This document shows, one piece after another, positions 37,516-60,814 of a DNA stretch of 64,000 nucleotides (positions within the stretch are counted from its first letter, which is position 1; each line of letters begins with the position of its first letter). Source of the DNA: Alphaproteobacteria bacterium (lineage in GTDB: Bacteria > Pseudomonadota > Alphaproteobacteria > SHVP01); NCBI GenBank assembly GCA_947473325.1, contig CANJEJ010000002.1:29359-93358 (forward strand), read 5' to 3'. Under the pieces are notes generated by a model. That model ran no database searches, was not told where the DNA came from, and saw only the letters and a list, made by a program, of their open reading frames with translations. The position numbers and the translations under genes are program-made.

Positions 37516-37523
37516 AGGATGCC

Positions 37524-39206
37524 ATGACGAATGATCCGATGAAATGGTGGCGCACGCCCAAGGGCGTGCAGCGCGCCTATGCCGACAGCCGCTTCGGCCA
37601 GTTGCATTACGCCATCGCGCGGCCGGCCAAGGCGACGGCGCTGCCGCTCGTCTGCCTGCATGCCAGTCCGTCGTCCTGGCGCAGCTGGTTCAGCGTGATT
37701 CCGGAAATGGCGAGTGATCGCATCGTCGTGGCGCCGGACACGCCGGGCCATGGCGATTCCGACCTGCCGCCGTCGCAACCCGGCATCGAGGACTACGCCG
37801 CTGCGATCGGCGAGGCGCTCGACCAGATCGGCATCCGGCGCTTTGATGCCATCGGCAACCACACCGGGTCGAAGGTCGCGGTCGAACTCGCGCGCCAGCG
37901 CCCCGACCAGGTGCGCCGCCTCGTCCTGCTCTCGGCGCCGGTCTATTCCGACGAGGAATTGAAGGCGATCAAGGCGAAATATATGGAAGTGCCGCTGCAG
38001 GAAGACGGCGGTCACATGATCAAGCGCTGGTCATCGCTGATGAACGCGATGGGCAAGGTGCTGCCCATCGACATCGTGCAGCGCTCCTACAGCGAATCCC
38101 TCCGCGGCGGCATGGAATACGAATGGGGCCATCATGCGGCCTTCGCCTACCACCACGCCGACAACCTGCCGCACCTGCCCCACCGCATCACCGTGCTGAA
38201 TCCGAAAGACGAGATTCACGAGGCGACGAAGCGGGCGAAGAAATACCTGAAGAACGGCGAGGTGATGACGCTCGATGCGGGCCACGAGCTCCTCTATCTC
38301 GAGCCGGTGCGCTTTGGCCGCATGCTGCGCCAGCACCTCGACGGACCGGCACAGGATGTCGAGCCCGGCACGGTCACGCCGAAGCCGGCGCCACCGGCGC
38401 CGAAGATCACGCCGAAACTCGCCCGCAGGCACTATATCGACGGTGAACACGGCCAGATTCACTACCGGCGCACATCGCCGCTCAGCCCGACGCAAGTCCC
38501 GCTGCTCTGCCTGCATGCAAGCCCGCAGTCGAGCCTCAATTACGCCCAGCTGATGGAGGCCATCGGCACCGACCGCATCGTCGTCGCGCCCGACACGCCG
38601 GGCTATGGCAATTCGGAATGGCCAAAGACGGCACCGGCGATCGACGACTTCGCCCGCGCCATGATCCGCCTGGTGGCTGATCTCGGCCTAAAGACTGTCG
38701 ATGTCATGGGCTTCCACACCGGCTCGCTTACGGCGACCGAGATCGCGCGGCAGAAGCCGGGTCTCGTGCGCAAGATTGTCATGTATTCGGCACCGCTTTT
38801 CGCGGAAGAAGAACTTGCGTCTTTCCGTGCTGCCTATGCGCCGCTCGTGCTGCAGCCGGACGGGTCGCACACCGTCTACCGCTGGCGCCGCATGTGGAAA
38901 TGGAAGGACCCGAAGTTCCCGATCGAGGGCTATCACGTCATCAACGCGGAGCCCTTCCGCGCCGGGCCGAATTCCTGGTGGGGGCACAACGCGGCCTTCA
39001 ACTATCCCTTCCGCGAACGCCTGCCGCTCGTCGACAAGCCGATCCTCGTCCTCAACCCGAACGACGACCTCGTCGATCATTCGCGCAATGCCATGCCGCT
39101 GATGAAGCAGGGCCGCATCCACGAGCTGCCCGACTATGGCCATGGCATGATGGACGTGCACACGCCGGAAATCGCCAAAGTCATGCGGGGTTTCCTCGAT
39201 GGCTGA
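37524..39206 (+). CDS. tandem-duplicated alpha/beta-hydrolase-fold protein with non-canonical nucleophile motifs (G-N-H-T-G-S and G-F-H-T-G-S), family members 2 and 3 fused
   Basis: ORF 37500..39206 trimmed to Met 9 after an AAGGA SD. Two homologous ~280-aa halves, each with GQ[LI]HY...LCLHASP...APDTPG[HY]G. Confidence 0.7.
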   Translation: MTNDPMKWWRTPKGVQRAYADSRFGQLHYAIARPAKATALPLVCLHASPSSWRSWFSVIPEMASDRIVVAPDTPGHGDSDLPPSQPGIEDYAAAIGEALDQIGIRRFDAIGNHTGSKVAVELARQRPDQVRRLVLLSAPVYSDEELKAIKAKYMEVPLQEDGGHMIKRWSSLMNAMGKVLPIDIVQRSYSESLRGGMEYEWGHHAAFAYHHADNLPHLPHRITVLNPKDEIHEATKRAKKYLKNGEVMTLDAGHELLYLEPVRFGRMLRQHLDGPAQDVEPGTVTPKPAPPAPKITPKLARRHYIDGEHGQIHYRRTSPLSPTQVPLLCLHASPQSSLNYAQLMEAIGTDRIVVAPDTPGYGNSEWPKTAPAIDDFARAMIRLVADLGLKTVDVMGFHTGSLTATEIARQKPGLVRKIVMYSAPLFAEEELASFRAAYAPLVLQPDGSHTVYRWRRMWKWKDPKFPIEGYHVINAEPFRAGPNSWWGHNAAFNYPFRERLPLVDKPILVLNPNDDLVDHSRNAMPLMKQGRIHELPDYGHGMMDVHTPEIAKVMRGFLDG

Positions 39207-40263
39207 GATGCAGTACCGCCCGCTCGGCAGAAGCGGCCTGCGCGTGTCGCCGATCTGCCTTGGCGTGCTGCAGTTCGGCGCCGCCGCCACGCCGGCCGAC
39301 GCGGCGGCGATGATCGACAGCGCCCGCGCTGCCGGCGTCAACTTCCTCGACGTCGCCAATGTCTATGCGCTGGGCGAGGCGGAGCGCGCGCTCGGGCCGC
39401 TGATCGCGCGCGACCGCGATAGCTGGGTGCTGGCGACCAAGGCGGGCATCGCGATGGGGCCGGGGCCGCATCGCGGCGGCCTGTCGCGCAAGCATTTGTT
39501 CGACGCACTTGACGATTCGCTGCGCCGCCTCGGCACCGACTATGTCGATATCTTCTACCTGCATGTGCCGGACGAAGAGACACCGCTCGCGGAAACGCTG
39601 CGCGCGGTCGACGACATCATCCGCTCCGGCAAGGCGCGCTATTTCGGCATCAGCAACTACCGCGCCTTCGAGATTGCCGACATCGCGCTGACCTGCGACC
39701 GCATGGGCATCGCGCGGCCCGTCGTGTGCCAGATGCTCTACAACCTTGTCGACCGCGAGGCGGAGCGCGAGATCATTCCCGCCTGCCACCAGTTCGGCAT
39801 CGCGGTCGCGCCTTACAGCCCGCTGGCGCGTGGCGTGCTCACCGGCAAATACACGGTCAACGCGCCGCTGCCCGAAGGCTCGCGCGCGGCCCGCAAGGAC
39901 CGCCGCCTGATCGAGGCGGAGCTGCGCGACGAATCGATCCTGTTCGCCGCGCAGATGGCGGAACGGGCAAAGGCGCGCGGCCTCACCCCGTCGCAATTCG
40001 CCATCGCCTGGATGCTGCGCAACCGGTTGCTCACCAGCGTCGTCACCGGGCCGCGCACGCTCGCCCAGTGGGAAGACAATCTGTCGGCCGCGACCGTCAC
40101 GCTCACGGCCGAGGACGAAGCCTTTGTGAACGCCATCGTGCCGCCAGGCTGGGGCTCCACCCCCCAGTTCAACGATCCCCTGTGGCCGCCGCTCGGCCGC
40201 GAAGCCGCGGCGGGGGAGCGAATCCGCCCGGCCAAGGCACTGCCGCCGGGTCCCAAGGCCTGA
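39199..40263 (+). CDS. aldo/keto reductase (Tas/YajO-like AKR)
   Basis: 354 aa. AKR motifs. Start overlaps the upstream stop by 8 nt. Confidence 0.85.
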   Translation: MAEMQYRPLGRSGLRVSPICLGVLQFGAAATPADAAAMIDSARAAGVNFLDVANVYALGEAERALGPLIARDRDSWVLATKAGIAMGPGPHRGGLSRKHLFDALDDSLRRLGTDYVDIFYLHVPDEETPLAETLRAVDDIIRSGKARYFGISNYRAFEIADIALTCDRMGIARPVVCQMLYNLVDREAEREIIPACHQFGIAVAPYSPLARGVLTGKYTVNAPLPEGSRAARKDRRLIEAELRDESILFAAQMAERAKARGLTPSQFAIAWMLRNRLLTSVVTGPRTLAQWEDNLSAATVTLTAEDEAFVNAIVPPGWGSTPQFNDPLWPPLGREAAAGERIRPAKALPPGPKA

Positions 40264-40391
40264 CTTTTCGCCCTCGGGCTGTCCCAGGTCTGCACAAAAA
40301 CGCACCGCTGGACTGCGCGACAGCCCCGTGGAGGGGCGGATTTGACCCAGTTTGCTGCACGTGCGAAGAAAAAATTGACGGGTCTATAAGT

Positions 40392-40405
40392 CGCAGATTT
40401 CTGCG
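40392..40405. promoter_or_regulatory. lux/tra-box-like inverted repeat CGCAGA-TT-TCTGCG, ~155 nt upstream of luxR-family gene
   Basis: Read directly. Resembles the core of the tra-box (TGCAGATCTGCA). Further TCTGCG repeats lie at ~40455-40490. Confidence 0.3.
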
Positions 40406-40559
40406 GTTTTCCACAGGCTGAGCCATGCATTCGGCTCCGATCAGGGCCTCTGTTCTGCGAATCTGCATATCACTTCTGCGACCTTTCCGAATTCGCCGTG
40501 GCGGCCCCCCTCCCTAGACTGCAGGCGTTGCAAAGGATGCACGGCCTGGGGAGCCAAGC

Positions 40560-41288
40560 ATGTTCACGGAAGCAGCGGAATTCATGGAAGTGGCGCAGCG
40601 CCCGGGCAAGCCCGACGCGGTGCGGGATCGCTTCGCCAAGGCGGTCCGGGCGCTCGGCTTCGACGCCTTCGGCTATTTCGGCATGTACGCGCCGTTCGGG
40701 GCCGAAACCTCGCCCTTCATGGTGTCGACCTTCCCGCAGTCCTGGCAGGCCCGCTACGTCGAGCACCAGTACCACCGCCATGATCCGGTGGTGGCGGAGG
40801 CGATCCGCAGCGTGATCCCGCTGCGCTGGGATGAGCTTTCCCAGCGCCGCCCGCTCCGCCCCGAAGAGGTCGCGGTCCTGGTCGAGGCGCGCGAGCATGG
40901 CCTCGTTCACGGCTTCACCGTGCCTGTGCATGGCCTCGGCGGCGAACTGGGTGTCACCAGCGTCGTCGCTGGCCCCGGCACCCGCGACTTCGACCGCTTG
41001 GTCGAGGCACACCGCCACACAATCCACCTGATGGCCGTCTACCTGCACAACGCGTTGCGCGAGCAGGCCGCGGCAATGCCAACGCGCGAGGCGCGCCTGT
41101 CGCCGCGCGAGATCGAATGCATTGCATGGACGGCACAGGGCAAGACGACCTGGGAAGTGTCGCAGATCCTGCGCCTGTCAGAAGCGACGGTAAATTTCTA
41201 CCTGCGCAACGCCATGCGGAAGCTCGGCGTGCACAGCAAGGCGCACGCGGTCGCCAAGACCCTTGTACTCGGGCTGATCCACGCATGA
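40560..41288 (+). CDS. LuxR-family transcriptional regulator with N-terminal autoinducer (AHL)-binding domain; orphan, no luxI in the window
   Basis: 242 aa. Autoinducer-binding domain residues conserved (W in QSWQARY, Y in HQYH, D-P in HRHDPVV, W in PLRWDE, G). C-terminal LuxR HTH (LSPREIECIAWTAQGKTTWEVSQIL). Confidence 0.85.
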   Translation: MFTEAAEFMEVAQRPGKPDAVRDRFAKAVRALGFDAFGYFGMYAPFGAETSPFMVSTFPQSWQARYVEHQYHRHDPVVAEAIRSVIPLRWDELSQRRPLRPEEVAVLVEAREHGLVHGFTVPVHGLGGELGVTSVVAGPGTRDFDRLVEAHRHTIHLMAVYLHNALREQAAAMPTREARLSPREIECIAWTAQGKTTWEVSQILRLSEATVNFYLRNAMRKLGVHSKAHAVAKTLVLGLIHA

Positions 41289-41485
41289 CGCCCGTTCACT
41301 CCACTTCACCGATTGAGGGCCGGGGTGATCGCTTCGGCGATCTCGCCCCAGCTGCGTTCCGTGCCGCACCCGGAACGCAGATGTCGAAGGCTGCCGGCGC
41401 CCATCGCCGTCAGCCGGTCCCTACCTCCTCAGGGACTCCTCGGCGACCTGCCTGGCGGGAACTCCGTGCCCTCAACCCCGCATAT

Positions 41486-41521
41486 CCCGTCACGATCGCG
41501 CAGTCACACAGCTGTGACGGG
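41486..41521. promoter_or_regulatory. nested inverted repeat CCCGTCAC...GTGACGGG enclosing palindrome CACAGCTGTG, ~45 nt upstream of a small ORF
   Basis: Read directly. Candidate operator, function unknown. Confidence 0.3.
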
Positions 41522-41565
41522 AATAGCTTTCCGCAACCCCGCGTTTTCAATGGGAGATGACTGAC

Positions 41566-41739
41566 ATGGCGACGATGACGTCTCAAGGGCCAAACCCCTG
41601 GCTTCTCCTGAAGCGCGCCTTCGGCCTTGCGCCCAAGCCCGCGCCGGCCACACGGGCCGCGCCGCGCCAGGCGGCCTACGACGACTACTGGGCGCTGCAG
41701 AATCGCAAAGCCTCGCGTCCGGCACCGATCAAGAAGTAG
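41566..41739 (+). CDS. small basic Pro/Ala-rich peptide ORF (57 aa), hypothetical
   Basis: GGGAGA SD 8 nt upstream of the ATG. Sits directly upstream of the pentapeptide-repeat gene. No homology recognised. Confidence 0.3.
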   Translation: MATMTSQGPNPWLLLKRAFGLAPKPAPATRAAPRQAAYDDYWALQNRKASRPAPIKK

Positions 41740-41778
41740 CCGCGCGGCACCGAAACCCTCGCCCCTCGGGAGGAGGCG

Positions 41779-42900
41779 ATGACCATGACAGTGGGCCTAA
41801 ACAGCGGGACGAATGCCATGACCCCGCACCAGCTGATCGACCTGCTGCACAGCCACTCGCGCTATGTTGCGCGGCGGGATGGCGGCAAGCGCGCCGAGCT
41901 GGTGCGCCAGGATCTCTCCGGCCTGCGACTCAAGGGCGTGGTGCTGGAAGGGGCGCGGCTTGCCGGCGCCAACCTGTCCGGCTGCGACCTGACCGGGGCG
42001 AACCTGCGCGGCGCCGACCTGTTCGGGGCGCGCCTCGATGGTGCGACGCTAGCGGGCGCCGACATGGAGCGTGCCGACCTGCGCGGCGCCTCGCTGCAGG
42101 AAGCCAGCCTGCGTTACGCCAACCTGAAGGAAGTCGACCTGCGCTCGGGCATGCTGCTGCACCATGGCGGCGATGCGGCGATGACACGCGCGATGGCGCA
42201 GCGGCCGACCCACGCCGACTTGCGCGGCACCGACCTGCAGCGCGCCAACCTGACCGCGGCGCGGCTGAAAGACGCCAACCTGACTGGCAGCAACCTGCGA
42301 GGCGCCACCGTCACGCATGCCCGTTTCGAAGGCGCCAACCTGCGCGGCGCGGTGCTGGCGGATGTGAACCTGCCGTCGGCCAACTTCACCGGCGCACGCT
42401 ACAGCGCCGCTTCGGCCGAGCTGCCCTTTGACCTGCAGGTCATCCTGCGCGACCACGCGCTGTGGGCGGACTCAGCGGGGAGCCGCGGCGTGCGCGCCCT
42501 GCTGCGCGGCGTCGACCTGCGCGGCCTCAACCTCGCCTTCGCCTATCTCAACGGCGCCGACCTGCTGGGCGCCGACCTGCGCAACTGCAACCTGGCGGAC
42601 AGCGAGTTCGTACTCGCCAACCTGATGGAAGCGCGGCTCGACAAGGCGAACCTGCGCAAGGCCGACCTCTCGGGCGCCTGCCTGCGGGCGGCGACGCTGA
42701 CGGGCGCCTGCCTGGAACGCGCACGCTTCGCCACGGTCGACGTCAAGGACGCCAGGGGCCAGCCCACGGGGCGCAACCGCGCCACCGACCTGCGCGGCGC
42801 CGACCTGACCGATGCCGACCTGTCGCAGACCGACCTGTCGGCGGCCATCCCGGTCCATGGCGCCCCCGAACCGGAAACCGACGACGTGCCGCGCAACTAG
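41779..42900 (+). CDS. pentapeptide-repeat protein (two repeat domains)
   Basis: 373 aa. Long runs of A(D/N)LxG pentapeptides (ANLSGCDLTGANLRGADLFGARLDGATLAGADM...). Paralog of 56750..58021. Confidence 0.8.
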   Translation: MTMTVGLNSGTNAMTPHQLIDLLHSHSRYVARRDGGKRAELVRQDLSGLRLKGVVLEGARLAGANLSGCDLTGANLRGADLFGARLDGATLAGADMERADLRGASLQEASLRYANLKEVDLRSGMLLHHGGDAAMTRAMAQRPTHADLRGTDLQRANLTAARLKDANLTGSNLRGATVTHARFEGANLRGAVLADVNLPSANFTGARYSAASAELPFDLQVILRDHALWADSAGSRGVRALLRGVDLRGLNLAFAYLNGADLLGADLRNCNLADSEFVLANLMEARLDKANLRKADLSGACLRAATLTGACLERARFATVDVKDARGQPTGRNRATDLRGADLTDADLSQTDLSAAIPVHGAPEPETDDVPRN

Positions 42901-42985
42901 TCATCCAGCCCTTGCCCGCGCGTCCCGTCCTGTCACAATGACCTCGGCCCCGTTTCGGGGCCGTTGTCATTCAGGCGGGGCGGAC

Positions 42986-43417
42986 ATGGCAGGGTATTTC
43001 GAAACCCAGCGCGGCGTCGTGCAGGCGTGGGAATGTGACCACATGGGTCACCTCAACACGACCTTCTACATGCAGAAATTCAGCGAGGCGGGGGCGCAGC
43101 TCACCGCCCGCATCGGGCTGACGCGCCTCTACATGGACGAAAGCGGCGGCGGCATGGCCGCGCTCGAACACATCATCAAGTACCGCCGCGAGCTGCGCGC
43201 GGGCGATGTTACGCTGGTCGAAAGCGGCATGCTCGAGGTTGGCAACAAGACGATCCGCTTCCTCCACCGCCTGCTCAACGCGACGACGCTGGAGCTGGCG
43301 GCGACCATGGAAGGCGTCGCCTGCTATTTCGATCGCAACACGCGAAAATCCGAACCGCTGCCCGACTTCATGCGCGCGAAGTCGCTGGCCCTCATTGTCG
43401 AACGCAAGGATGACTGA
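42986..43417 (+). CDS. hotdog-fold acyl-CoA thioesterase (4HBT/YbgC-like)
   Basis: ORF 42812..43417 trimmed to Met 59 (MAGYFETQRGVVQAWECDHMGHLNTTFYM...), the typical 4HBT motif. Confidence 0.75.
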   Translation: MAGYFETQRGVVQAWECDHMGHLNTTFYMQKFSEAGAQLTARIGLTRLYMDESGGGMAALEHIIKYRRELRAGDVTLVESGMLEVGNKTIRFLHRLLNATTLELAATMEGVACYFDRNTRKSEPLPDFMRAKSLALIVERKDD

Positions 43418-43418
43418 C

Positions 43419-44201
43419 ATGCGTTGTGGTTACGTCGATCTTCCCGCCGGCCAGGTGCATTACCGCCGCGCCGGTGATTCCGGCCCCTGGGTGTTCCTGT
43501 TCCACCAGACTCCGCTGTCGTCGCGCATGTATGAACCGACGCTGCCCGAACTGGGCAAGACCTGTCGCGCGGTCGCCTTCGACACGCCGGGCTATGGCGG
43601 TTCGGCGCCGCCCGCCGGGCCGACCACGGTGAACGATTATGCGACGCGCCTGCTTGCGGCGATCGACACTTTCACCACCGGAAACTTCGTGTTGGTCGGC
43701 GTCGCCACCGGTTGCGCCGTGTCGCTGGAAATCGCCCGCCTCGCCGGCAAGCGGGTAACCCATGCCGTCTTCAGCGGCGCGCCGCTGCTCACCCCCGCAC
43801 GCATGGCGCATTTCCGCGCCCAGCTCGGCGAGCCCGCCGTCAAGGAAGACGGCAGCCACCTGCTGCAGGTGTGGAAAAGCCGCCGCGGCAACTGGGGTGA
43901 CGAAGCCCCCATGGACCAGATGATGATGGCGGCGTCGGAAACCATCCGGGTCTACGACCGGCTGAACTGGGGCCTGCTCGCTGTGACGCGCTATGACGTG
44001 CGCGCGGCGCTTGAGGCCCTGACCTGTCCGGTCCTGTTCATCTCGGCGGGCTTCGACAAGCTCGCGCCCGAGAATGAGGCGGCGGCCAGCGTCGTGCGCC
44101 ACAGCGTGCAGAAAGTCATCCCCGGTGTGCCGCCGCAGCTCTGCTGGACCGCGCCACAAGCTTACGCGCGGGAAATCAGCTCTTTCATTGGCGCTGGTTG
44201 A
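43419..44201 (+). CDS. alpha/beta-hydrolase-fold protein with non-canonical nucleophile motif (G-V-A-T-G-C), family member 4
   Basis: ORF 43206..44201 trimmed to Met 72 (an alternative ATG at 43410 overlaps the thioesterase stop). GQVHYRR and FLFHQTP motifs as in the other family members. Confidence 0.65.
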   Translation: MRCGYVDLPAGQVHYRRAGDSGPWVFLFHQTPLSSRMYEPTLPELGKTCRAVAFDTPGYGGSAPPAGPTTVNDYATRLLAAIDTFTTGNFVLVGVATGCAVSLEIARLAGKRVTHAVFSGAPLLTPARMAHFRAQLGEPAVKEDGSHLLQVWKSRRGNWGDEAPMDQMMMAASETIRVYDRLNWGLLAVTRYDVRAALEALTCPVLFISAGFDKLAPENEAAASVVRHSVQKVIPGVPPQLCWTAPQAYAREISSFIGAG

Positions 44202-44296
44202 CAGGTCGCAGCTCGCTCCCGATGTAACCCGGAACGAGGCGTTCGCCGCTGTAAGCCTTATGTAACAATGGCACAGGGGCTTTGGTGGGGCACCGC

Positions 44297-46567
44297 ATGG
44301 CAATCCGGTTGACGCGTTGGGTGGGGGCGGCGGTCGCTGCCCTGGGCTTGTCGGCCTGTGGGGTGCTCGCCCCATTGCCGCGTTCGACCACGGTCGAGGA
44401 ACGCCTGGCCATGCTGCCCACCACCGGCCTGCCGCTCAAGGGCAGGGTGACGGTGCGCTGGAACGACCAGATGGTCCCCTTCGTCGAAGCCGAGCATGAC
44501 GAGGACCTGGCGGTCGCGCTGGGCGTCATTCACGCGCATCTCCGGCTTGGCCAGATGGAAGTGGGCCGCCGCGCCGCGCGCGGGCGCATCGCCGAGATGG
44601 GTGGGCCGCTCGCCACCGACATCGACCACGCGTTGCGCATCATCGACTTCGGCAAGGCGACGCCGCAGGTTGTGGCGGCCATGCCGGCCGACAGCCGCGC
44701 CTGGCTCGACGGCTTCGTGCGCGGCCTCAACCACTACGTCGCCACGACCAGGGAGCTGCCGCACGAATTCGCCGTGCTCGGGCTGGAACGCGAGCCGTGG
44801 ACGGCGGAAGACGTGCTGACGGTGGGGCGCCTCGCATCGAGCGACGTCAACTGGTTCGTCTGGTTCGCCCTGCTGAAGCAGCGCAACCGTCCCGACTGGC
44901 CGCAGGTGTGGGAACGCCTGGTGGGCGAGGGGACGATGTCTGTGCCAAGTCACGCCGCCGGCCAGACGCGCGACTTCGCGGCGCTGCAGGACCTGCTGGT
45001 TGGCATGAGCCGGTCGGGCAGCAACTCGGTCGCCGTCACGGCACAGAAGAGCACGTCGGGCGGCGCGCTGATCGCCAGCGATCCGCATCTCGGCGTCACG
45101 CTGCCGAACCTGTGGCTGGTCGCGGGATACAAATCGCCGTCCTATCACGCGGTCGGGCTGATGCCCGCCGGCCTGCCGTTTCTCGCGATTGGCCGCAATG
45201 AACGCATCGCCTGGGGCGGCACCAATTTGCGCGCCGCATCGAGCGACCTGTTCGACGTCAGCAGCCTGCCCGCCGACCAGTTCCGCCTGCGCGCGGAGAA
45301 GATCAGGGTGCGCTTCTGGTTCGACCGCACGGTGCAGGTGCGCGAGACGAAGCTGGGCCCGGTCATTTCCGACGCGCCGATGATCGACATGGGCGGCGCC
45401 GGGCCGCTCGCCATCCGCTGGATCGGCCACAGCCCGACGGACGAGTTGAACGCCATGCTGCGCCTCAACCGTGCCGGCAACTGGGACGAGTTCCGTGCCG
45501 CACTGGACGGCTTCGCCATCTCGGCGCAGAACATGATCTACGCGGATATCGACGGCAACATCGGCCATGTCATGGCGGCGCATCTGCCGAAGCGGCCTAA
45601 CGCAGCGCCGGCCGATCTCGTCACGCCCTTTGCGGATGCCGGCCCGTGGGACGAAATCGTCACGGGCGCCAGCCTGCCGGTCACCTTCAATCCTCCGGGC
45701 GGTGTCATCGCCTCGGCGAACAACCGCGGCGCGGAAGCGGATGTGCCGATCGGCTATTTCTTCTCGCCCAACGATCGCGTGCTGCGGCTTGCCAGCGTGC
45801 TGGAGAAGCGCGAACGCGTCAGCGCAGCCGAACTAAGCGCCATCCAGCGCGACACGTTCCAGATTTCATCGCTCGACCTGCGCGATGTGCTGGTCGCGCG
45901 GGCCCGCCGCGAGATGCTTGCCGATGCCCTGCCCGCTGACCAGCGCACGCTGTTCGATCGCATGGCCGGCTGGGATGGGTACTACAGCGTGGCGTCGCCC
46001 GGCGCCCCGGCGTTTGAAATCTTCCTGTTCCATTTCGTGGCCGCCTTCTTCGACGCGCAACAGAAGTCGGTCTATGGCTCTACGGGGCGTCCCTTCAGCT
46101 TCTACCAGGCGGATATCGAAGCCGCGCCGGCGGATCGCTTCGCCGCCGCTTTCCGGGCGGCGCTGGCAGCGGCTGCGCCGCGCGCCACCGAGGTGCAGGC
46201 CTGGGGCGACATGCACCGCCTGTCGCTCGGCCACCCGCTCGGCTTCATCCCGGTTCTGGGCCGGCGCTACCAGATCGGTGGCGATATCCCGACAGGCGGC
46301 AGCTCCAACACCGTGATGAAGACGGCGCATGACCTGACCGACCAGCGCCACTTCACGCGCTATGGCTCCAACGCGCGCCATGTCTCCGACATGGCCGATC
46401 CGGACGCCAATTTCTTCACCCTGCTCGGCGGGCAGGACGGCTGGTTCAACAGCGCCGCCTTCAACGACCAGTCGGTGCTGTGGCGCGACGGCGCCCATGT
46501 CCAGGTGCCGATGCGACCCGAATCGGTACGCGCCAGCTTCCGCCACGTCACCGTGCTGTCGCCGTAG
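44297..46567 (+). CDS. penicillin-amidase/acylase family Ntn-hydrolase lipoprotein (AHL-acylase-like, PvdQ/QuiP/AiiD group)
   Basis: ORF 44282..46567 trimmed to Met 6. Lipobox LSAC signal. Conserved G-S-N-S-V-A-V autoproteolytic site with the Ser nucleophile of the beta subunit. ~756 aa, typical of the family. Confidence 0.85.
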   Translation: MAIRLTRWVGAAVAALGLSACGVLAPLPRSTTVEERLAMLPTTGLPLKGRVTVRWNDQMVPFVEAEHDEDLAVALGVIHAHLRLGQMEVGRRAARGRIAEMGGPLATDIDHALRIIDFGKATPQVVAAMPADSRAWLDGFVRGLNHYVATTRELPHEFAVLGLEREPWTAEDVLTVGRLASSDVNWFVWFALLKQRNRPDWPQVWERLVGEGTMSVPSHAAGQTRDFAALQDLLVGMSRSGSNSVAVTAQKSTSGGALIASDPHLGVTLPNLWLVAGYKSPSYHAVGLMPAGLPFLAIGRNERIAWGGTNLRAASSDLFDVSSLPADQFRLRAEKIRVRFWFDRTVQVRETKLGPVISDAPMIDMGGAGPLAIRWIGHSPTDELNAMLRLNRAGNWDEFRAALDGFAISAQNMIYADIDGNIGHVMAAHLPKRPNAAPADLVTPFADAGPWDEIVTGASLPVTFNPPGGVIASANNRGAEADVPIGYFFSPNDRVLRLASVLEKRERVSAAELSAIQRDTFQISSLDLRDVLVARARREMLADALPADQRTLFDRMAGWDGYYSVASPGAPAFEIFLFHFVAAFFDAQQKSVYGSTGRPFSFYQADIEAAPADRFAAAFRAALAAAAPRATEVQAWGDMHRLSLGHPLGFIPVLGRRYQIGGDIPTGGSSNTVMKTAHDLTDQRHFTRYGSNARHVSDMADPDANFFTLLGGQDGWFNSAAFNDQSVLWRDGAHVQVPMRPESVRASFRHVTVLSP

Positions 46568-46573
46568 CGCCGG

Positions 46574-48112
46574 ATGCTCGACGCCACGCCGCTCTTCCGC
46601 CTTTACGCGAAGTGGCGGCTCGCCCGGATCGACCGTCTTGATCCCATCGCGGCGCAGGAACGCACGCTGTCCCATCTGCTCCGCCTCGCGGCGAACACAG
46701 CCTTCGGCCAGGCCCATGACTTTGCGCATCTGCGCACGGTCGGCGAATACCAGCGCGCAGTGCCGCTGCGGCGCTATGACGACTTCTGGCGGGACTGGTG
46801 GCAACCGCGCTTCCCTCAGCTTACGGACTGCACCTGGCCGGGCACGATTCCCTATTTTGCGCTGTCCTCCGGCACCAGCACCGGCATCACCAAATACATC
46901 CCGCTGTCGCGTGCGATGATGCGCAGCAACCAGCGCGCCGGCATCGACCTGCTCGCGCATTTCATGCGCGACCAGCCCGACAGCGGTCTGTTCGCCGGGC
47001 GCAGCTTCATGCTGGGCGGCAGCACCGACGTGGTGCCGCTGGCGCCCGGCATCTTCAGCGGCGATCTCAGCGGCATCGCGGTGAAGGAAATGCCCCGCTG
47101 GGCCCGCTCGCGCAGCTTTCCGCCGGCCGATCTCGCCCTGATCGCCGACTGGGAGGAAAAGGTGGCGAAGCTCGCGCCCGCCGCGCTCAAGGCCGACCTG
47201 CGCCTCATCGGCGGCACACCGAGCTGGCTGCTGATCTTCTTCGACCGCCTCGCCGCGCTTCGGCCGGACAGCCAGGGCCAGCTCGGCGCGTTGTTTCCCG
47301 ACCTCGAACTGCTCATTCATGGCGGCGTCAACTTCGCGCCCTACCGCCAGCGCTTTGCCGAACTGCTCGCCGGCAGCCAGGCAGAGACGCGCGAGGTCTA
47401 TCCCGCCAGCGAAGGCTTCATCGCCTTTGCCGACCGGCCGGGCGAGACGGGCCTGCGCCTGACCCTCGACACCGGCCTGTTCTACGAATTCGTGCCGCTC
47501 GCCGAACTCGACAGCCCCAACCCGACCCGCCACTGGCTGGCGACGGTGGAAACGGGCATCGACTACGCCATCGTCGTCACCACCTGCGCCGGGCTGTGGT
47601 CCTATGTCGTCGGCGACACGGTGCGCTTCGTCGAGACGCGGCCGCCGCGCCTGATCGTTACCGGCCGCACCTCCTACATGCTGTCGGCCTTTGGCGAGCA
47701 TGTGATCGACCTCGAGGTCGAGCAGGCGGTGGCGGTGGCGGCCAGCGCGATTGGCGCGGCAGTGACCGATTTCTCGGTCGGCGCGCTGTTCCCCGCCAAG
47801 GCAGGCGAACTCGGCGGCCATCTATATGTGGTGGAGTTTGCCGGTGGGGTACCGGATGACGTGGCGCAGGCCCGTTTCACCGCCGCGCTGGATGCCAGCC
47901 TGCAAGCCGCCAACGACGACTATCGCGCCCACCGCAGTGGCGGTTTCGGGCTGCGCGCGCCGACGTTGCTGCCGATGCTGCCGGGCGGCTTCGCCGCCTG
48001 GATGAAGCAGCGGGGCAAGCTTGGCGGCCAGAACAAGGTGCCGCGCATCGTCGCCGGCGCGGCGCTGTTTGCCGACTTGCGCGCCTTCGCCGCGCGCTTC
48101 CAGCAAGGCTGA
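46574..48112 (+). CDS. GH3-family acyl-acid amido synthetase (adenylate-forming, auxin-responsive GH3-like)
   Basis: 512 aa. SSGTSTGITKYIP adenylation motif and YxSSE-type motifs characteristic of GH3 proteins. Begins 7 nt after the acylase stop. Confidence 0.8.
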   Translation: MLDATPLFRLYAKWRLARIDRLDPIAAQERTLSHLLRLAANTAFGQAHDFAHLRTVGEYQRAVPLRRYDDFWRDWWQPRFPQLTDCTWPGTIPYFALSSGTSTGITKYIPLSRAMMRSNQRAGIDLLAHFMRDQPDSGLFAGRSFMLGGSTDVVPLAPGIFSGDLSGIAVKEMPRWARSRSFPPADLALIADWEEKVAKLAPAALKADLRLIGGTPSWLLIFFDRLAALRPDSQGQLGALFPDLELLIHGGVNFAPYRQRFAELLAGSQAETREVYPASEGFIAFADRPGETGLRLTLDTGLFYEFVPLAELDSPNPTRHWLATVETGIDYAIVVTTCAGLWSYVVGDTVRFVETRPPRLIVTGRTSYMLSAFGEHVIDLEVEQAVAVAASAIGAAVTDFSVGALFPAKAGELGGHLYVVEFAGGVPDDVAQARFTAALDASLQAANDDYRAHRSGGFGLRAPTLLPMLPGGFAAWMKQRGKLGGQNKVPRIVAGAALFADLRAFAARFQQG

Positions 48113-48384
48113 CTCCGACGTCCAGGATGTGCGTCAGATCACGCGGCGGAAATTTTTATCCCCGTGGGGTCACTTTTCTATTGCATGGGGGGGCAACAGG
48201 TCTTATTTCGCGAACCTGTCGGACGTCACGGATCGTGGCTTCCGGCGTCGGCGGGTGAAGAGCCCGCTCCTAGGACCCGGCCCATCCTTCGATTTGGGAC
48301 CGGCACACTTGAAAACGGTGGTCACTCCGTTCAGTGGCCAGTTTTGGTGCGTCGTGTCCCGGCGCGTATCTGGAGGATGAAGGA

Positions 48385-48780
48385 ATGCTGTCTTTGGCAC
48401 AGTCGCCGGAGCCGTTGGTCGCTGACATCGGTCTGCACGTCATTGGTGACTTCCAGGACGTCGACCCAAGGGTCCTCGCGGACGAGAAATTCCTCATGAA
48501 GGCCCTGGACGAGGCGCTGCGCGACGCACGCTTCACCATCCTGGGCGAGAAGAGCATCAAGTTCCCGGGCGAAGAGTCGGGCGTGACCGGCATCATCATC
48601 CTGTCGGAATCGCACGCCGCCTTCCACAGCTACCCGGAATACGGCTACATCGCCGTCGATGTCTTTTCCTGCGGCGACACCAGCCCGGAAGCGGTGGTCG
48701 ACGGGTTCGCCCGCCGGCTGCGTGCCGGCACGGTGAACAAGCGAATCATGGAGCGCGGCAAGGACGTCCGCCGCTTCTGA
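48385..48780 (+). CDS. speD: S-adenosylmethionine decarboxylase proenzyme, pyruvoyl-dependent class 1b
   Basis: ORF 48334..48780 trimmed to Met 18 after a GGAGGA SD. GVTGIIILSESHAAFHSYPEYGYIAVDVFSCGD closely matches the B. subtilis SpeD self-cleavage/active-site region (ISESH...HSFPEHGY...DVYTCGD). Confidence 0.85.
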   Translation: MLSLAQSPEPLVADIGLHVIGDFQDVDPRVLADEKFLMKALDEALRDARFTILGEKSIKFPGEESGVTGIIILSESHAAFHSYPEYGYIAVDVFSCGDTSPEAVVDGFARRLRAGTVNKRIMERGKDVRRF

Positions 48781-48787
48781 TGTTTCA

Positions 48788-48820
48788 AGGGCCCGGCCGA
48801 AAGGCCGGGCCTTTCTGCAA
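48788..48820 (+). terminator. rho-independent terminator after speD
   Basis: GGCCCGGCC-GAAA-GGCCGGGCC stem-loop followed by TTTCTGC. Confidence 0.6.
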
Positions 48821-48913: not shown

Positions 48914-50269
48914 ATGACCGATGTGACCGACGCCCAAGCCCCCGCTCTGCCCGCCGGCCAGCGTATTGCCGTGATCGGCGCGGGCGTGGCTGGCCTGGCC
49001 GCCGCCTGGCTGCTGTCGAAGCGCCACCAGGTCACGTTGTTCGAGGCGAATGGCTATGCCGGCGGTCACAGCAACACGGTCGAGGCCGAGGTCAGGGGCC
49101 GCCGCGTCGTCGTCGACACCGGCTTCATCGTCTTCAACGACATCAACTACCCGAACCTGCTGCACCTGTTCGACCGGCTGCAGGTGCCGAGCGAGCCGTC
49201 GAACATGTCCTTCGCACTGTCGCTCGACGAAGGCCGCTTTGAATATGCGAGCAGCCTGCCCTTCGCGCCCTTCGCGCAAGCCTCCAATCTGCTGCGCCCG
49301 CACTTCCTGCGCATGCTGTGGGAAATCCCGCGCTTCTACCGCGAGGCGCTGGCCCTGCAGCGCCGCGGCGTACCCGGCGACCTCACCATCGGCGACCTGC
49401 TGACGCGCAGCGGCTATTCCGACACCTATCGCCTGTATCACCTGCTGCCGATGGCGGCGGCGATCTGGTCGACGCCGGTCGACCGCATCGGCGAATTTCC
49501 CGCCGACGAGTTCATCCGCTTCTATGACGAGCACGGCCTGCTGCGCTTCACCCGGCGGCCGCGCTGGCGCACCGTCACCGGCGGCAGCCGCGAATATGTC
49601 CGCCGCGTGCTGGCCGATTTCGGCGGCACGCTGATGCTGAATGCGCCGGTGGCGAAGATCGTCCGTGCCGCCAATGTCGTCACCCTGCACCTCAGGAATG
49701 GCGCGCAGGCGCAGTTCGACCAGGTGGTCTGCGCCAGCCATGCCGATCAGACGCTGCGCATGCTCGAAGCGCCCAGCGCGGGGGAGCGCGAGGCACTGGG
49801 GTCCTTCGCCTATGCGTCCAGCCACGCCATCCTCCACAGCGACACGCGCCTGATGCCGAAGCGCCACGCGGCGTGGTCGAGCTGGAATTTTGAAGCGCGG
49901 CGCGACCAACCGGCCGGGCGCGGCGTCGCGCTCACCTACTGGATGAACCAGCTGCAGAACCTCGATCCGGCGCATCCGCTGTTCGTCTCGCTCAACCCGT
50001 GGCACGACCCCGCCCCCGAAAGTGTGATCGCTGCCTTCGACTACGAGCATCCCGTGTATACATTGGCCGCGCCGCGGGCCCAGAAGGCGCTGCCGGCGCT
50101 GCAGGGCGTCAACCGCACATGGTTCTGCGGCAGCTATTGCGGGTATGGTTTCCATGAAGACGCCTTCAAGTCGGGTCTCGCCGTGGCGGAAAAATTGGGT
50201 GCAAGCGTGCCGTGGGGCGGCGTGCTGAACGTGACGGGGAAACCCGTCGTGGTTCGGCCGGCGGCTTGA
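48914..50269 (+). CDS. NAD/FAD-binding oxidoreductase (amine-oxidase/phytoene-desaturase-like flavoprotein of the cfa-like cluster)
   Basis: 451 aa. N-terminal IAVIGAGVAGLAAA dinucleotide-binding motif. Conserved neighbourhood with DUF1365 and CFA-synthase-like genes. Confidence 0.8.
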   Translation: MTDVTDAQAPALPAGQRIAVIGAGVAGLAAAWLLSKRHQVTLFEANGYAGGHSNTVEAEVRGRRVVVDTGFIVFNDINYPNLLHLFDRLQVPSEPSNMSFALSLDEGRFEYASSLPFAPFAQASNLLRPHFLRMLWEIPRFYREALALQRRGVPGDLTIGDLLTRSGYSDTYRLYHLLPMAAAIWSTPVDRIGEFPADEFIRFYDEHGLLRFTRRPRWRTVTGGSREYVRRVLADFGGTLMLNAPVAKIVRAANVVTLHLRNGAQAQFDQVVCASHADQTLRMLEAPSAGEREALGSFAYASSHAILHSDTRLMPKRHAAWSSWNFEARRDQPAGRGVALTYWMNQLQNLDPAHPLFVSLNPWHDPAPESVIAAFDYEHPVYTLAAPRAQKALPALQGVNRTWFCGSYCGYGFHEDAFKSGLAVAEKLGASVPWGGVLNVTGKPVVVRPAA

Positions 50270-51102
50270 TGCGCTCCGCGCTCTACACCGGGCGGGTCAT
50301 GCACTTGCGTCTGCGGCCGGTGCGGCACCAGTTCCACTACCGCATCTTCACGCTGCTGCTCGATCTCGACGAACTGCCGGTGCTCGACAAGAAGCTGCGC
50401 CTGTTCGGCCACAACCGCAGCAGCCTGTTCAGCTTCCATGACCGCGACCATGGGCCGGGTGACGGCTCCAACCTGAAGGCCTGGGCGCAGGCGCAGGTAC
50501 GGGCAGCGGGCCTCGCCGGCGACGGTGCGGTGCTGCTGCAATGCCTGCCGCGCATGCTCGGCTATGTCTTCAACCCGCTCAGCGTCTATTACTGCTACGA
50601 CCGCCATGGCCGGCTCGAGGCGCTGCTGCACCAGGTCAGCAACACCTTCGGCGAACGCCACAGCTACCTTCTGCCGGTCACGGCCCGCGATGATCGCGGC
50701 GTGGTTGCCCAGTCGGTCGACAAGGCGCTCTTCGTCTCGCCCTTCAACGGCATGGATCACCGCTATCACTTCCAGGTGCGCGACCCCGACGATCGCCTGT
50801 CGGTTGTCATCCGGCAGACTGACGCGCAGGGAAACCTGTTGTTTGCCACCGTCACCGGCAACCGCCAGGTGTTGTCCGACCGGGTGCTTTTCGCTCGTTT
50901 TCTGGCCTTTCCGGCCATGACCCTGACGGTTCTGGCGGCCATTCACTGGCATGCGCTGCGCCTTTGGATCAAAGGCGTGCCGCTGGCGAAAAAGCCCCCC
51001 GCGCCACAGGAAGCTGTTTCGATTCAAGGTCTTGTTGCCCAGAAGCCCGGTTTTGACGACACTGCGCCCGCCCGGCCGGTCATCCAGTCGGCCCGCGTCT
51101 GA
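50269..51102 (+). CDS. DUF1365-family protein
   Basis: ORF 50212..51102 trimmed to Met 20 (MRSALYTGRVMHLRLRP...), the typical DUF1365 N-terminus. ATGA overlap with the upstream gene. Confidence 0.75.
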   Translation: MRSALYTGRVMHLRLRPVRHQFHYRIFTLLLDLDELPVLDKKLRLFGHNRSSLFSFHDRDHGPGDGSNLKAWAQAQVRAAGLAGDGAVLLQCLPRMLGYVFNPLSVYYCYDRHGRLEALLHQVSNTFGERHSYLLPVTARDDRGVVAQSVDKALFVSPFNGMDHRYHFQVRDPDDRLSVVIRQTDAQGNLLFATVTGNRQVLSDRVLFARFLAFPAMTLTVLAAIHWHALRLWIKGVPLAKKPPAPQEAVSIQGLVAQKPGFDDTAPARPVIQSARV

Positions 51103-51142: not shown

Positions 51143-52390
51143 ATGGTTGACCTCCGATCGCGCTCCGAGACTGCGGACCCGCTTGCCCTGCTCGACCACG
51201 CAGCCAAGGGCGACAGCGGCATTCCGCTGCTCTTGCGGCCCTTCGTGCGCAGTTTCCGCCGCCGCTTCCGCGTCGGACGCCTCGTCTACCAGCTGCCCGG
51301 CGGCTACAGCGGCGCCATCCAGGGCGACATGCCGGGCCCGGAGGCGGGCCTTGTGCTGCACAGCTGGCGCGCCATCCGCCGCCTCATTACCGGCAGCGGC
51401 CTCGGTTTCGCCGAAGCCTATCTCGACGGTGAATGGGACACGCCCGACCTCGCCACCTTCATCGAGCTGATGAGCCTCAACCGCGTCGCCTCGGAACAGG
51501 TGACGGGTCATGCCTGGAAGCGCTGGCTCGGCCGGCTGCGCCATGGCCGGCGCCGCAACACGGTGGACGGCAGCCGCCGCAACATCGCCGCGCATTACGA
51601 CCTCGGCAACGAATTCTATGCCACCTGGCTCGATCCCAGCATGACCTACTCCTCGGCGGTCTATGCGCCGGGCATGGCAAGGCTGGAAGATGCGCAGCGC
51701 GTCAAGTATGCCCGCCTGCTCGGCTTGCTCGGCGCCAGGCCGGGCGACCACATCCTGGAAATCGGCTGCGGCTGGGGCGGTTTCGCCCAATACGCCGCCG
51801 AACAGGGTATGCACGTCACCGGCATCACCATCTCGCAGGCCCAGCACGACTACGCGGTGCAGCGCATCCGCAACGCCGGGCTCAGCGACAAGGTGGAAAT
51901 CCGTCTCTGCGACTATCGCAAGGTCGAGGGCCAGTTCGACCATGTCGTCTCGATCGAAATGATCGAGGCGGTGGGCGAGGCCTTCTGGCCGACCTATTTC
52001 CACAAGATCGCCGAATGCGTGCGCTCGGGCGGCCGCATCGCCATCCAGGCGATCACCGTCAGCGACGAAGCCTTCGAAAGCTATCGCCGCCGCGCCGATT
52101 TCATCCAGACATACATCTTCCCGGGCGGCATGCTGCCGTGTCGCGCCGCGCTGCGGCGGGAAACGGAAAAGTTCGGCCTGCGCTGGCTGGGCGACGACGG
52201 CTTCGCGCTCGACTATGCGAAGACGCTGGAAGAATGGCGCCAGTCGTTCCTGGCCAACTGGGCGCGCATCGCGCCACTCGGCTTCGACGAACGCTTCCGC
52301 CGCATCTGGACGTTCTATCTCGCCGGCTGCGAAGGCTCATTCCGCGCCCGCAGCATCGACGTGCTGCAGATCACATTGCAGCGCGCCTAG
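51143..52390 (+). CDS. cyclopropane-fatty-acyl-phospholipid-synthase-family SAM-dependent methyltransferase
   Basis: 415 aa. ILEIGCGWGGFA SAM-binding motif and CFA-synthase-family C-terminal motifs (YLAGCEGSF). Confidence 0.85.
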   Translation: MVDLRSRSETADPLALLDHAAKGDSGIPLLLRPFVRSFRRRFRVGRLVYQLPGGYSGAIQGDMPGPEAGLVLHSWRAIRRLITGSGLGFAEAYLDGEWDTPDLATFIELMSLNRVASEQVTGHAWKRWLGRLRHGRRRNTVDGSRRNIAAHYDLGNEFYATWLDPSMTYSSAVYAPGMARLEDAQRVKYARLLGLLGARPGDHILEIGCGWGGFAQYAAEQGMHVTGITISQAQHDYAVQRIRNAGLSDKVEIRLCDYRKVEGQFDHVVSIEMIEAVGEAFWPTYFHKIAECVRSGGRIAIQAITVSDEAFESYRRRADFIQTYIFPGGMLPCRAALRRETEKFGLRWLGDDGFALDYAKTLEEWRQSFLANWARIAPLGFDERFRRIWTFYLAGCEGSFRARSIDVLQITLQRA

Positions 52391-60777: not shown

Positions 60778-60814
60778 GCCATGTGGTCTTGCGCAACGCA
60801 TTGGCTCGAGCCAC

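Follow-up and report, generated by a model that had tools for sequence, protein, structure and literature searches.

We analyzed a cluster of genes on the + strand of a 64,000-nucleotide stretch of alphaproteobacterial DNA (hereafter the window, by which we mean the whole stretch that was analyzed; contig CANJEJ010000002.1 of assembly GCA_947473325.1), in which a gene for a penicillin-acylase-family N-terminal nucleophile (Ntn) hydrolase is directly followed by a gene for a ligase of the GH3 family. The window belongs to a metagenome scaffold of 156.7 kb (ENA ERZ28612979, scaffold_678). Its G+C content is about 66%, and the closest relatives of its genes are found in alphaproteobacterial metagenome-assembled genomes (MAGs). 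An earlier note on this DNA had listed eight items at the locus and had read them as a remodeling or salvage cycle for an N-acylated signal. All eight are present on the + strand where it had placed them; coordinates were refined using public gene calls, and domains were assigned from Pfam and NCBIfam profiles. They are a LuxR-family regulator of the N-acyl-homoserine lactone (AHL) type (40560-41288), a 277-nt intergenic region with inverted repeats (41289-41565) that leads into a gene for a basic peptide of 57 residues (41566-41739), a two-block pentapeptide-repeat protein (41785-42900), a hotdog (4HBT_2) thioesterase (42986-43417), an alpha/beta-hydrolase-fold protein without a Ser nucleophile and without a catalytic His (43419-44201), the S45 Ntn hydrolase, a lipoprotein predicted to be periplasmic (44297-46567; hereafter the acylase), the GH3 ligase, which is OlsH-like and predicted to be cytoplasmic (46574-48112), and a pyruvoyl S-adenosylmethionine (AdoMet) decarboxylase (48385-48780). 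The stop codon of the thioesterase gene lies 1 nt from the start of the alpha/beta-fold gene, and the GH3 start does come just after the acylase stop, as the note had it, with 6 nt between the TAG at 46565-46567 and the ATG at 46574.

The GH3 protein is matched by all three domains of its family (N, M, and C), with 91.7 bits for PF03321, 54.2 for PF23571, and 57.7 for PF23572 against a cutoff of 23.6 in each case. Its only NCBIfam match is to the model OlsH_GH3_orni (NF052613), at 598.9 bits, below the equivalog cutoff of 620. On the same model the planctomycete OlsH proteins score 905-909, seven proteobacterial homologues including the window protein score 553-610, and a GH3 protein from Bacteroidota scores 403; by the curated threshold, then, the window protein is without OlsH equivalog status. 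OlsH from Singulisphaera acidiphila was described in 2025 as a lyso-ornithine-lipid synthetase that forms an N-acyl amino acid from a fatty acid, an amino acid, and ATP, using free fatty acid and Mg2+, and it is encoded in an operon with OlsI, an alpha/beta-fold O-acyltransferase, and OlsG, a methylase; the role of the homologues outside planctomycetes was left open by its authors (PMC12493201). The identity between the window protein and relatives of OlsH from planctomycetes is about 50%, and in a neighbor-joining tree the proteobacterial GH3 clade is the sister of the planctomycete OlsH clade. Its motifs S99-G100-T101...T106-K107, Y276-x-A278-S279-E280, and G340...G347-D348 are invariant in 19 homologues and match the OlsH motifs TSGTTQGATK, TYPCSE, and GMWSHLIGD, among them the equivalent of the essential Ser115 of OlsH. 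From its GH3 domains, its OlsH score, its place in the sister clade, and its invariant nucleotide-binding residues, the window protein is very probably a fatty-acid–amine ligase. It shares OlsH's fold, domains, and nucleotide-binding motifs, and the same chemistry, consumption of free fatty acid, ATP, and an amino acid with an N-acyl amino acid as the product, would be expected of it. Membership in the OlsH family points to the synthesis of a membrane aminolipid rather than to signal chemistry. What distinguishes the window locus from the OlsH-OlsI(-OlsG) operon is that it has neither OlsI nor OlsG and has an exported S45 acylase as the partner instead. One further homologue may be mentioned here: the GH3 protein on a contig labeled as a Reyranella massiliensis MAG (L068; L numbers denote loci recovered in our searches) is 37% identical to that of the window and groups with Bacteroidota, outside the proteobacterial clade; horizontal transfer or an error in binning may account for this.

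The acylase matches the Penicil_amidase profile PF01804 over practically its full length (477.8 bits, E-value 1.1e-142, profile positions 2-674 of 675). When translated from an upstream in-frame start, its N-terminus reads MAIRLTRWVGAAVAALGLSAC, in which a lipobox, L-S-A-C, was recognized by inspection. The lipobox Cys is kept in nearly all homologues at the loci that were fetched, and C21 together with G241-S242-N243, the autoproteolytic site with the Ser nucleophile, is invariant in 22 homologues; position 241 aligns to residue 1 of the beta chain of the solved acylases. The earlier note had called the enzyme AHL-acylase-like, a label that the comparison with solved structures does not support. 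A profile of the acylase family gives 234 bits with D-succinylase (7ea4), 147 with glutaryl-7-ACA acylase, about 138 with penicillin G acylase, and 34 with the AHL acylase PvdQ, and the NCBIfam PvdQ model gives 18.4 bits for the window protein against a cutoff of 950; this comparison covers the acylases with solved structures, so that the AHL acylases QuiP, HacB, and AiiD stand outside it. D-succinylase also belongs to S45, and its substrates are N-succinyl-D-amino acids (PMC11241749). The nearest solved relative of the acylase thus cleaves the class of product that GH3 enzymes make. The window acylase shares with D-succinylase, penicillin G acylase, glutaryl-7-ACA acylase, and PvdQ the full-length Penicil_amidase domain, the G-S-N motif, and export, but those enzymes are soluble in the periplasm whereas this one has a lipoprotein anchor. 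It also differs from them in belonging to a large, mainly alphaproteobacterial subfamily of its own (51-62% identity) that has no characterized member. As a more general point, naming S45 acylases as AHL acylases from their family and a nearby LuxR gene is unreliable.

Because the GH3 protein belongs to an ATP-dependent enzyme class and has no signal sequence, and because the acylase is a lipoprotein, the two enzymes are predicted to lie on opposite sides of the inner membrane.

How general is the pairing of these two genes? The GH3 alignment was used to scan one genome per GTDB species, which gave 80 listed loci (27 of the proteobacterial clade and 53 from Planctomycetota or Bacteroidota), and the neighboring genes at these loci were scored by tblastn with the window proteins. 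An acylase gene lies directly upstream of the GH3 gene, on the same strand and 3-87 nt away, at 15 of the 27 proteobacterial-clade loci; at four others the flanks are truncated. No acylase was found beside GH3 at any of the 53 planctomycete or Bacteroidota loci. Carriers of the linked pair include Inquilinus limosus, Paracraurococcus lichenis, MAGs of Micropepsaceae and Acetobacteraceae, and MAGs labeled as Bordetella and Acidithiobacillus. All three metagenome relatives found through GH3 have the pair, one of them in the reversed order with GH3 first, and the genes around the pair differ in every case, in both gene orders. Two of the four loci that were retrieved with the acylase as the seed have an adjacent GH3 gene. 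In the tree, linked and unlinked GH3 genes are interspersed across the proteobacterial clade, which suggests that the linkage is old and has been lost repeatedly. The pairwise distances of GH3 and acylase proteins at 18 loci are correlated (Mantel r 0.56, a value reached in none of 5000 permutations; gap-free columns only, of which 187 were usable for the acylase). All-against-all clustering of open reading frames, which were called crudely at this high G+C content, showed no other conserved neighbor of the pair beyond the lineage of the window and L005. The coupling of the two genes that the earlier note had assumed is real as an adjacency, one that is conserved among related genomes.

These data also bear on the idea that the two enzymes are co-regulated yet biochemically independent, the acylase scavenging environmental amides such as N-acyl amino acids, beta-lactams, or lipopeptides while the GH3 enzyme makes an aminolipid, both as parts of a shared stress regulon. 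In its favor, a substantial minority of genomes have one of the two genes and not the other, and S45 acylases have broad and varied substrates (PMC11241749). The spacing is tight, however, being 3-87 nt at most loci and 6 nt in the window; the two genes have stayed adjacent even where their order is reversed and where all other neighbors have been exchanged; the association is limited to one GH3 clade; and the products of GH3 enzymes fall into the substrate class of the nearest solved relative of the acylase. Independence of the two enzymes is for these reasons improbable in our view.

The reading that we prefer, although we would put it somewhat short of an even chance, is that the acylase and the GH3 ligase form a pair for aminolipid homeostasis in the manner of lpiA-acvB, rather than a salvage cycle for a quorum signal. 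The hotdog thioesterase would release free fatty acid, and the cytoplasmic GH3 enzyme would adenylate it and couple it, at the amino group, to a basic amino acid or a related amine, giving an N-acyl amino acid, that is, a lyso-aminolipid. The translationally coupled acylase, exported and anchored by lipid, would hydrolyze amides of this kind once they are in the periplasm, and both enzymes together would set the level of the aminolipid in the envelope. In the lineage of the window, this operon would be under the control of an AHL-type LuxR protein and would include the small peptide, the pentapeptide-repeat protein, and the alpha/beta-fold protein that lacks the catalytic triad. Gene identities, catalytic motifs, the lipoprotein signal, and the conserved adjacency were observed; from these we infer on which substrates the enzymes act, how the cycle is arranged across the membrane, and how it is regulated. 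A dedicated thioesterase next to the ligase would make sense, since OlsH was inactive in living E. coli, for which its authors gave scarce free fatty acid as a possible reason (PMC12493201); the thioesterase is accordingly a putative supplier of free fatty acid for the GH3 enzyme.

The comparison with lpiA-acvB concerns the design only. The Agrobacterium operon encodes a synthase of lysyl-phosphatidylglycerol and a periplasmic hydrolase (PMC13197417); it is likewise a two-gene unit in which a synthase of an aminoacyl lipid at the cytoplasmic face and an exported hydrolase hold the level of the lipid steady. Its synthase is of the tRNA-dependent MprF type and its hydrolase has an alpha/beta fold, whereas the window encodes a GH3 ligase and an Ntn acylase, which are unrelated families, and the bond is an ester to phosphatidylglycerol in the one case and would be an amide to a fatty acid in the other.

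Several points weigh against aminolipid homeostasis as the function of the pair. The window GH3 protein falls short of the OlsH equivalog cutoff, and there is no OlsI-type O-acyltransferase in the window. Eight of the 27 proteobacterial GH3 loci have adequate flanks and no acylase, among them those of Stella vacuolata and of two Bdellovibrionota, and GH3 is absent from two of the four acylase-seeded loci. The correlation of GH3 and acylase distances could be explained by a shared species phylogeny alone. A substitute hydrolase was sought at acylase-less loci, and nothing consistent emerged among ten flanking proteins at six loci; these proteins include a methylmalonyl-CoA mutase, a solute-binding protein, GNAT, UDG, HAD, and enolase-family proteins, and cobW. 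The closest solved relative of the acylase works on short succinyl groups and not on long acyl chains. A pair of enzymes for synthesis and hydrolysis would moreover be a futile cycle unless compartments or regulation separate the two reactions. Finally, the acylase is an accessory and not an obligate partner within the larger gene cluster, one lineage of which keeps the cluster without the acylase or the thioesterase, so that both are dispensable to it.

This larger cluster was traced with a metagenome scan seeded on the alpha/beta-fold protein and with look-ups of close relatives, and it was found in three lineages. The first, comprising the window and relatives with GH3 proteins 87-94% identical, has the LuxR regulator, the peptide, the pentapeptide-repeat protein, the thioesterase, the alpha/beta-fold protein, the acylase, GH3, and the AdoMet decarboxylase, followed by three furan-fatty-acid genes, ufaD, ufaO, and ufaM; the genes 3' of the cluster are known in this lineage from the window alone, as the contigs of the relatives stop at GH3 or at the decarboxylase. 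The second (L089, L092-L095, and L099) has a helix-turn-helix (HTH)-only regulator, the peptide, a protein of 152 residues, the pentapeptide-repeat protein, the alpha/beta-fold protein directly beside GH3, the decarboxylase, a GPAT-like gene, and ufaD-ufaO-ufaM, and it has no thioesterase and no acylase. The third (L087 and L005) has the peptide, the pentapeptide-repeat protein, the thioesterase, the alpha/beta-fold protein, the acylase, GH3, and ufaD-ufaO-ufaM, with no decarboxylase and no detectable LuxR protein. The invariant core is thus made up of the peptide, the pentapeptide-repeat protein, the alpha/beta-fold protein, GH3, and the ufa genes, and the thioesterase, the acylase, the decarboxylase, and the type of regulator are interchangeable parts. 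The GPAT/PlsB-like acyltransferase of the second lineage (Pfam Acyltransferase and GPAT_C; L089:12900-14588 on the - strand, also in L093) sits between the decarboxylase gene and ufaD on the opposite strand and is a candidate for a second acylation step.

The ufa genes of the window encode a ufaD-like FAD desaturase (48914-50269), a ufaO-like DUF1365 protein (50269-51102), and a ufaM-like CMAS methylase (51143-52390), all on the + strand. The assignment is by Pfam families and gene order, with roles taken from the ufaD, ufaO, and ufaM genes of Rhodobacter and Rhodopseudomonas (PMC7380195); the same three families (FAD amine-oxidase-like, DUF1365, and CMAS) occur in the same order there. The window copies differ in that no ChrR gene and no gene for a sigma-E or extracytoplasmic function (ECF) sigma factor was seen near them, and that paper is silent on any linkage to a GH3 cluster (PMC7380195). 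The ufa genes adjoin the GH3 cluster in all three lineages. Since the stretch runs directly into genes for furan fatty acids, its setting appears to be lipid remodeling, and we regard it as one arm of a membrane-lipid remodeling island of about 16 kb.

The AdoMet decarboxylase is identified as a SpeD enzyme of the short bacterial/archaeal type by TIGR03330 (99.5 bits, cutoff 75.65), and its sequence LSESHAAFHSYPEYGY...FSCG aligns with ISESHLTIHTWPEYGY...FTCG of the Thermotoga proenzyme, with the Glu-Ser cleavage site and the catalytic Cys kept. The leader and the terminator that had been ascribed to this gene were both found: the leader is 272 nt long with a GGAGGA ribosome-binding site at its end, and a GC-rich hairpin followed by TTTCT stands after the stop codon (about 48789-48812, + strand). 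Rfam showed no riboswitch in the leader. The decarboxylase gene directly follows GH3 in the first and second lineages and is absent from L087. Its place directly after GH3 in two lineages makes a functional association probable. No spermidine synthase or other aminopropyltransferase was seen among the called genes, which were inspected for this and other families between 25.5 kb and the end of the window (64 kb). As the acylase–GH3 pair lies within an island that holds the decarboxylase and the ufa genes, its product may be a new aminolipid with a modified acyl chain or a head group derived from a polyamine.

The decarboxylase and the peptide also lend themselves to another scheme, in which the GH3 enzyme acylates an amine precursor, the acylated form enters or passes the inner membrane by virtue of its fatty acid, and the periplasmic acylase frees the mature product. 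What is acylated might be a derivative of an amino acid, a polyamine whose synthesis involves the AdoMet decarboxylase, or even the 57-residue peptide. The PvdQ-dependent maturation of pyoverdine offers the precedent, in that an adenylating step adds a fatty acid which a periplasmic Ntn acylase later removes. The topology of an ATP-dependent cytoplasmic ligase and a lipoprotein acylase fits such a route, and the conserved peptide gene and the decarboxylase recur in the cluster. No exporter gene, however, is conserved beside the pair at the loci examined; most acylase–GH3 loci have neither the peptide nor the decarboxylase; the second lineage has both of these and no acylase; and the products of OlsH are lipids that are end products (PMC12493201). 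We consider this scheme very doubtful.

The regulator has both domains expected of an AHL-type LuxR protein (Pfam Autoind_bind, E-value 9.7e-36; GerE, 8.7e-20). All six hallmark residues, in TraR numbering W57, Y61, D70, P71, W85, and G113, are conserved in it, and alignment to LasR shows W60, Y64, D73, P74, W88, and the Gly kept and Y56 replaced by Phe. No Autoind_synth family member was found among the called genes from 25.5 kb to 64 kb. The description of an orphan LuxR with conserved ligand-binding residues therefore stands for the residues, Y56F apart, and for the lack of a synthase among the genes from 25.5 kb onward. In its architecture, its hallmark ligand residues, and the lack of an adjacent luxI, the protein resembles the AHL-type LuxR solos QscR and SdiA; it differs from them in having a lipid-modifying cluster as its presumed target, in the Phe at the position of LasR Y56, and in having, in the second lineage, a counterpart without a ligand domain. 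This counterpart is an HTH-only LuxR-type protein of 122-126 residues in the position of the window LuxR (L089:7474-7842 and L092:7382-7762), whose DNA-binding domain is 63% identical and which has no autoinducer-binding domain. In the third lineage no LuxR homologue was detected, and the L087 contig covers the region upstream.

The intergenic region after the LuxR gene is exactly 277 nt long, as the earlier note had stated, and it contains five pairs of inverted repeats. One of these, TCCCGTCAC-N20-GTGACGGGA at 41485-41522, has arms of 9 nt and encloses an imperfect palindrome, GTCACAcagcTGTGAC. The inner palindrome is kept in L165, a 94% relative, in which the outer arms are already mutated, and the outer repeat was not found in the second and third lineages.

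It is at this point that a cycle for the salvage of quorum signals, the interpretation of the earlier note, has to be weighed. The acylase would cleave exogenous AHLs or other N-acyl signals, the GH3 enzyme would re-conjugate the imported fatty acid, and the LuxR solo would sense AHLs. A full-length AHL-type LuxR gene does lie directly upstream, with the hallmark residues and with no luxI from 25.5 to 64 kb; this arrangement is kept in the relatives whose GH3 proteins are 87-94% identical; the imperfect palindrome resembles a lux box and is found about 55 nt upstream of the operon's first gene; and export is a feature that the acylase has in common with known AHL acylases. Set against this, the acylase family is remote from PvdQ, by the scores and within the scope given above. 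The survey that the earlier note had proposed, of adjacency conserved together with luxR solos, bore out the adjacency but not the link to luxR: among the other acylase–GH3 loci a LuxR-family match was seen only at L031, a weak one (26% identity, E-value 3e-06, about 5 kb upstream). The flanking genes are those of fatty-acid and lipid modification. As the regulator of the second lineage has no ligand domain and none was detected in the third, a regulator family is common to two of the three lineages and AHL sensing, as judged from domain content, is confined to the lineage of the window. Control of the pair by quorum sensing was hence the weakest part of the earlier interpretation, and we find signal salvage unlikely.

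More tentatively still, the OlsH sister clade and its dedicated lipoprotein S45 acylase could be a widespread synthase/amidase pair that works from the two sides of the inner membrane on a lipid of the N-acyl amino-acid or N-acyl-amine kind, a possibility that we hold with some reserve. The earlier note named no described system with this gene combination. Full-text searches on GH3 and acylase terms likewise gave no paper that combines GH3 with a neighbor of the penicillin-acylase family, and neither the OlsH paper (PMC12493201) nor a 2026 review of ornithine lipids mentions an acylase or amidase (the former as a partner); the GH3 protein itself, on the other hand, belongs to a family that was characterized in 2025. 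The class of bacterial GH3 enzymes and the ufa genes are thus already known, and what is new is a conserved alternative partner for a large uncharacterized GH3 clade, which in the lineage of the window lies within a composite island for lipid remodeling. Bacterial GH3 enzymes were shown to make membrane aminolipids only in 2025, and a conserved partner gene supplies a concrete hypothesis for the whole proteobacterial clade, testable in the cultured Inquilinus limosus and Paracraurococcus lichenis. Were the acylase an amidase of aminolipids or N-acyl amino acids, it would supply the degradative half of a metabolism of the ornithine-lipid type and would be the first dedicated hydrolase for N-acyl amino-acid or N-acyl-amine lipids, and the design of synthase plus periplasmic hydrolase, known for aminoacyl-phosphatidylglycerol, would extend to a second, unrelated class of lipid. 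N-acyl amino acids are also of interest as biosurfactants, and it would be useful to have a ligase that needs neither acyl carrier protein nor CoA together with an amidase that matches it.

The alpha/beta-fold protein belongs to the invariant core, and its family is unusual. The earlier note had called it a nucleophile variant, which is correct and understates the case: the nucleophile elbow reads G-V-A-T-G, with Ala in place of Ser, and the position of the catalytic His is not His either. Of 49 aligned family members, none has Ser at the nucleophile position; 38 have His there and 11 have Ala. The window protein is in the Ala group, as are its closest homologues, and at the fetched loci every copy adjacent to GH3 has Ala. 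Pro or Gln occupies the position of the catalytic His, and H29, the stretch D-T-P-G-Y-G, G98, and D213 are invariant. An AlphaFold2 model has the canonical fold (predicted local distance difference test score, pLDDT, 94.3), and a Foldseek search with it returned no neighbors but generic folds of esterases and lactonases (16-21% identity). The protein was also considered as an O-acyltransferase of the OlsI type and rejected: it has no match to NF052614, on which a true OlsI (L029) scores 461.6 bits, and it aligns to that true OlsI only at an E-value of 0.05.

Upstream of the regulator, the window encodes on the + strand an aldo-keto reductase (36688-37515), a tandem double alpha/beta-fold protein of 568 residues (37500-39206), and a second aldo-keto reductase (39199-40263), all assigned by Pfam. 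L087 and L092 also have homologues of these proteins upstream of the cluster, and the L092 homologue of the tandem protein has a G-x-H-T-G motif in both halves.

Downstream of the ufa genes, up to about 56700 on the + strand, there are SDR, DUF6134, DUF3833, and MFS genes such as often accompany ufa genes. Genes for cobW-family GTPases were seen near GH3 or acylase–GH3 loci in the window (59356-61888, + strand) and at L171:3502-5770 and L022:12242-13222, twice accompanied by an amidohydrolase gene. As conserved partners of the pair they were rejected, since the copies in the window and L171 are only family-level relatives (32% identity over half of the protein), and the recurrence of cobW and amidohydrolase genes is probably due to chance.

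At the Rfam gathering thresholds, no RNA family match was found in the whole window. Sub-threshold matches occur only at the terminator hairpin of the decarboxylase gene (48782-48815, both strands), to CRISPR-DR9 (E-value 0.017) and to the Caulobacter sRNA CC0196 (E-value 0.19); they were dismissed as artefacts of a palindromic hairpin and do not point to a CRISPR repeat. A scan for sigma-70 promoters gave no sites, and such a scan is uninformative for a GC-rich alphaproteobacterium.

The remaining members of the cluster are the peptide, the thioesterase, and the pentapeptide-repeat protein. The small peptide frame of the earlier note is called by a public gene caller and is conserved in all three lineages, which indicates a real gene. 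Its basic product has the motif W-x-x-L-K/R ... A-x-Y-x-D-Y-W ... K-K, and the pentapeptide gene has a homologue of it, 57-67 residues long (pairwise E-value 3e-07), upstream in L087, L089, L092, L093, L095, L099, and L153. The thioesterase (Pfam 4HBT_2, E-value 2.5e-25) is present in L087 and L005, and a search of the PDB matched hypothetical proteins only. The pentapeptide-repeat protein (Pfam Pentapeptide, E-value 1.4e-60) has seven repeat stretches in two blocks and no signal peptide, and it is 45-49% identical across the three lineages. Between its gene and that of the thioesterase, on the + strand, there is a perfect GC-rich hairpin of 8 G-C pairs at 42945-42963 (CGGCCCCG ttt CGGGGCCG) with a weak T tail, which may be an internal attenuator or a site of RNA processing in the operon. 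A second pentapeptide-repeat paralogue of 423 residues is encoded 9 kb downstream on the - strand (56750-58021), with tblastn segments 31-45% identical to the pentapeptide-repeat protein of the cluster. A second, independent association of an acylase with a pentapeptide-repeat protein was observed at L168:4422-5777 (- strand), where an acylase orthologue, 61% identical to that of the window and with no GH3 neighbor, is divergently paired with a fusion of a receiver domain and pentapeptide repeats.

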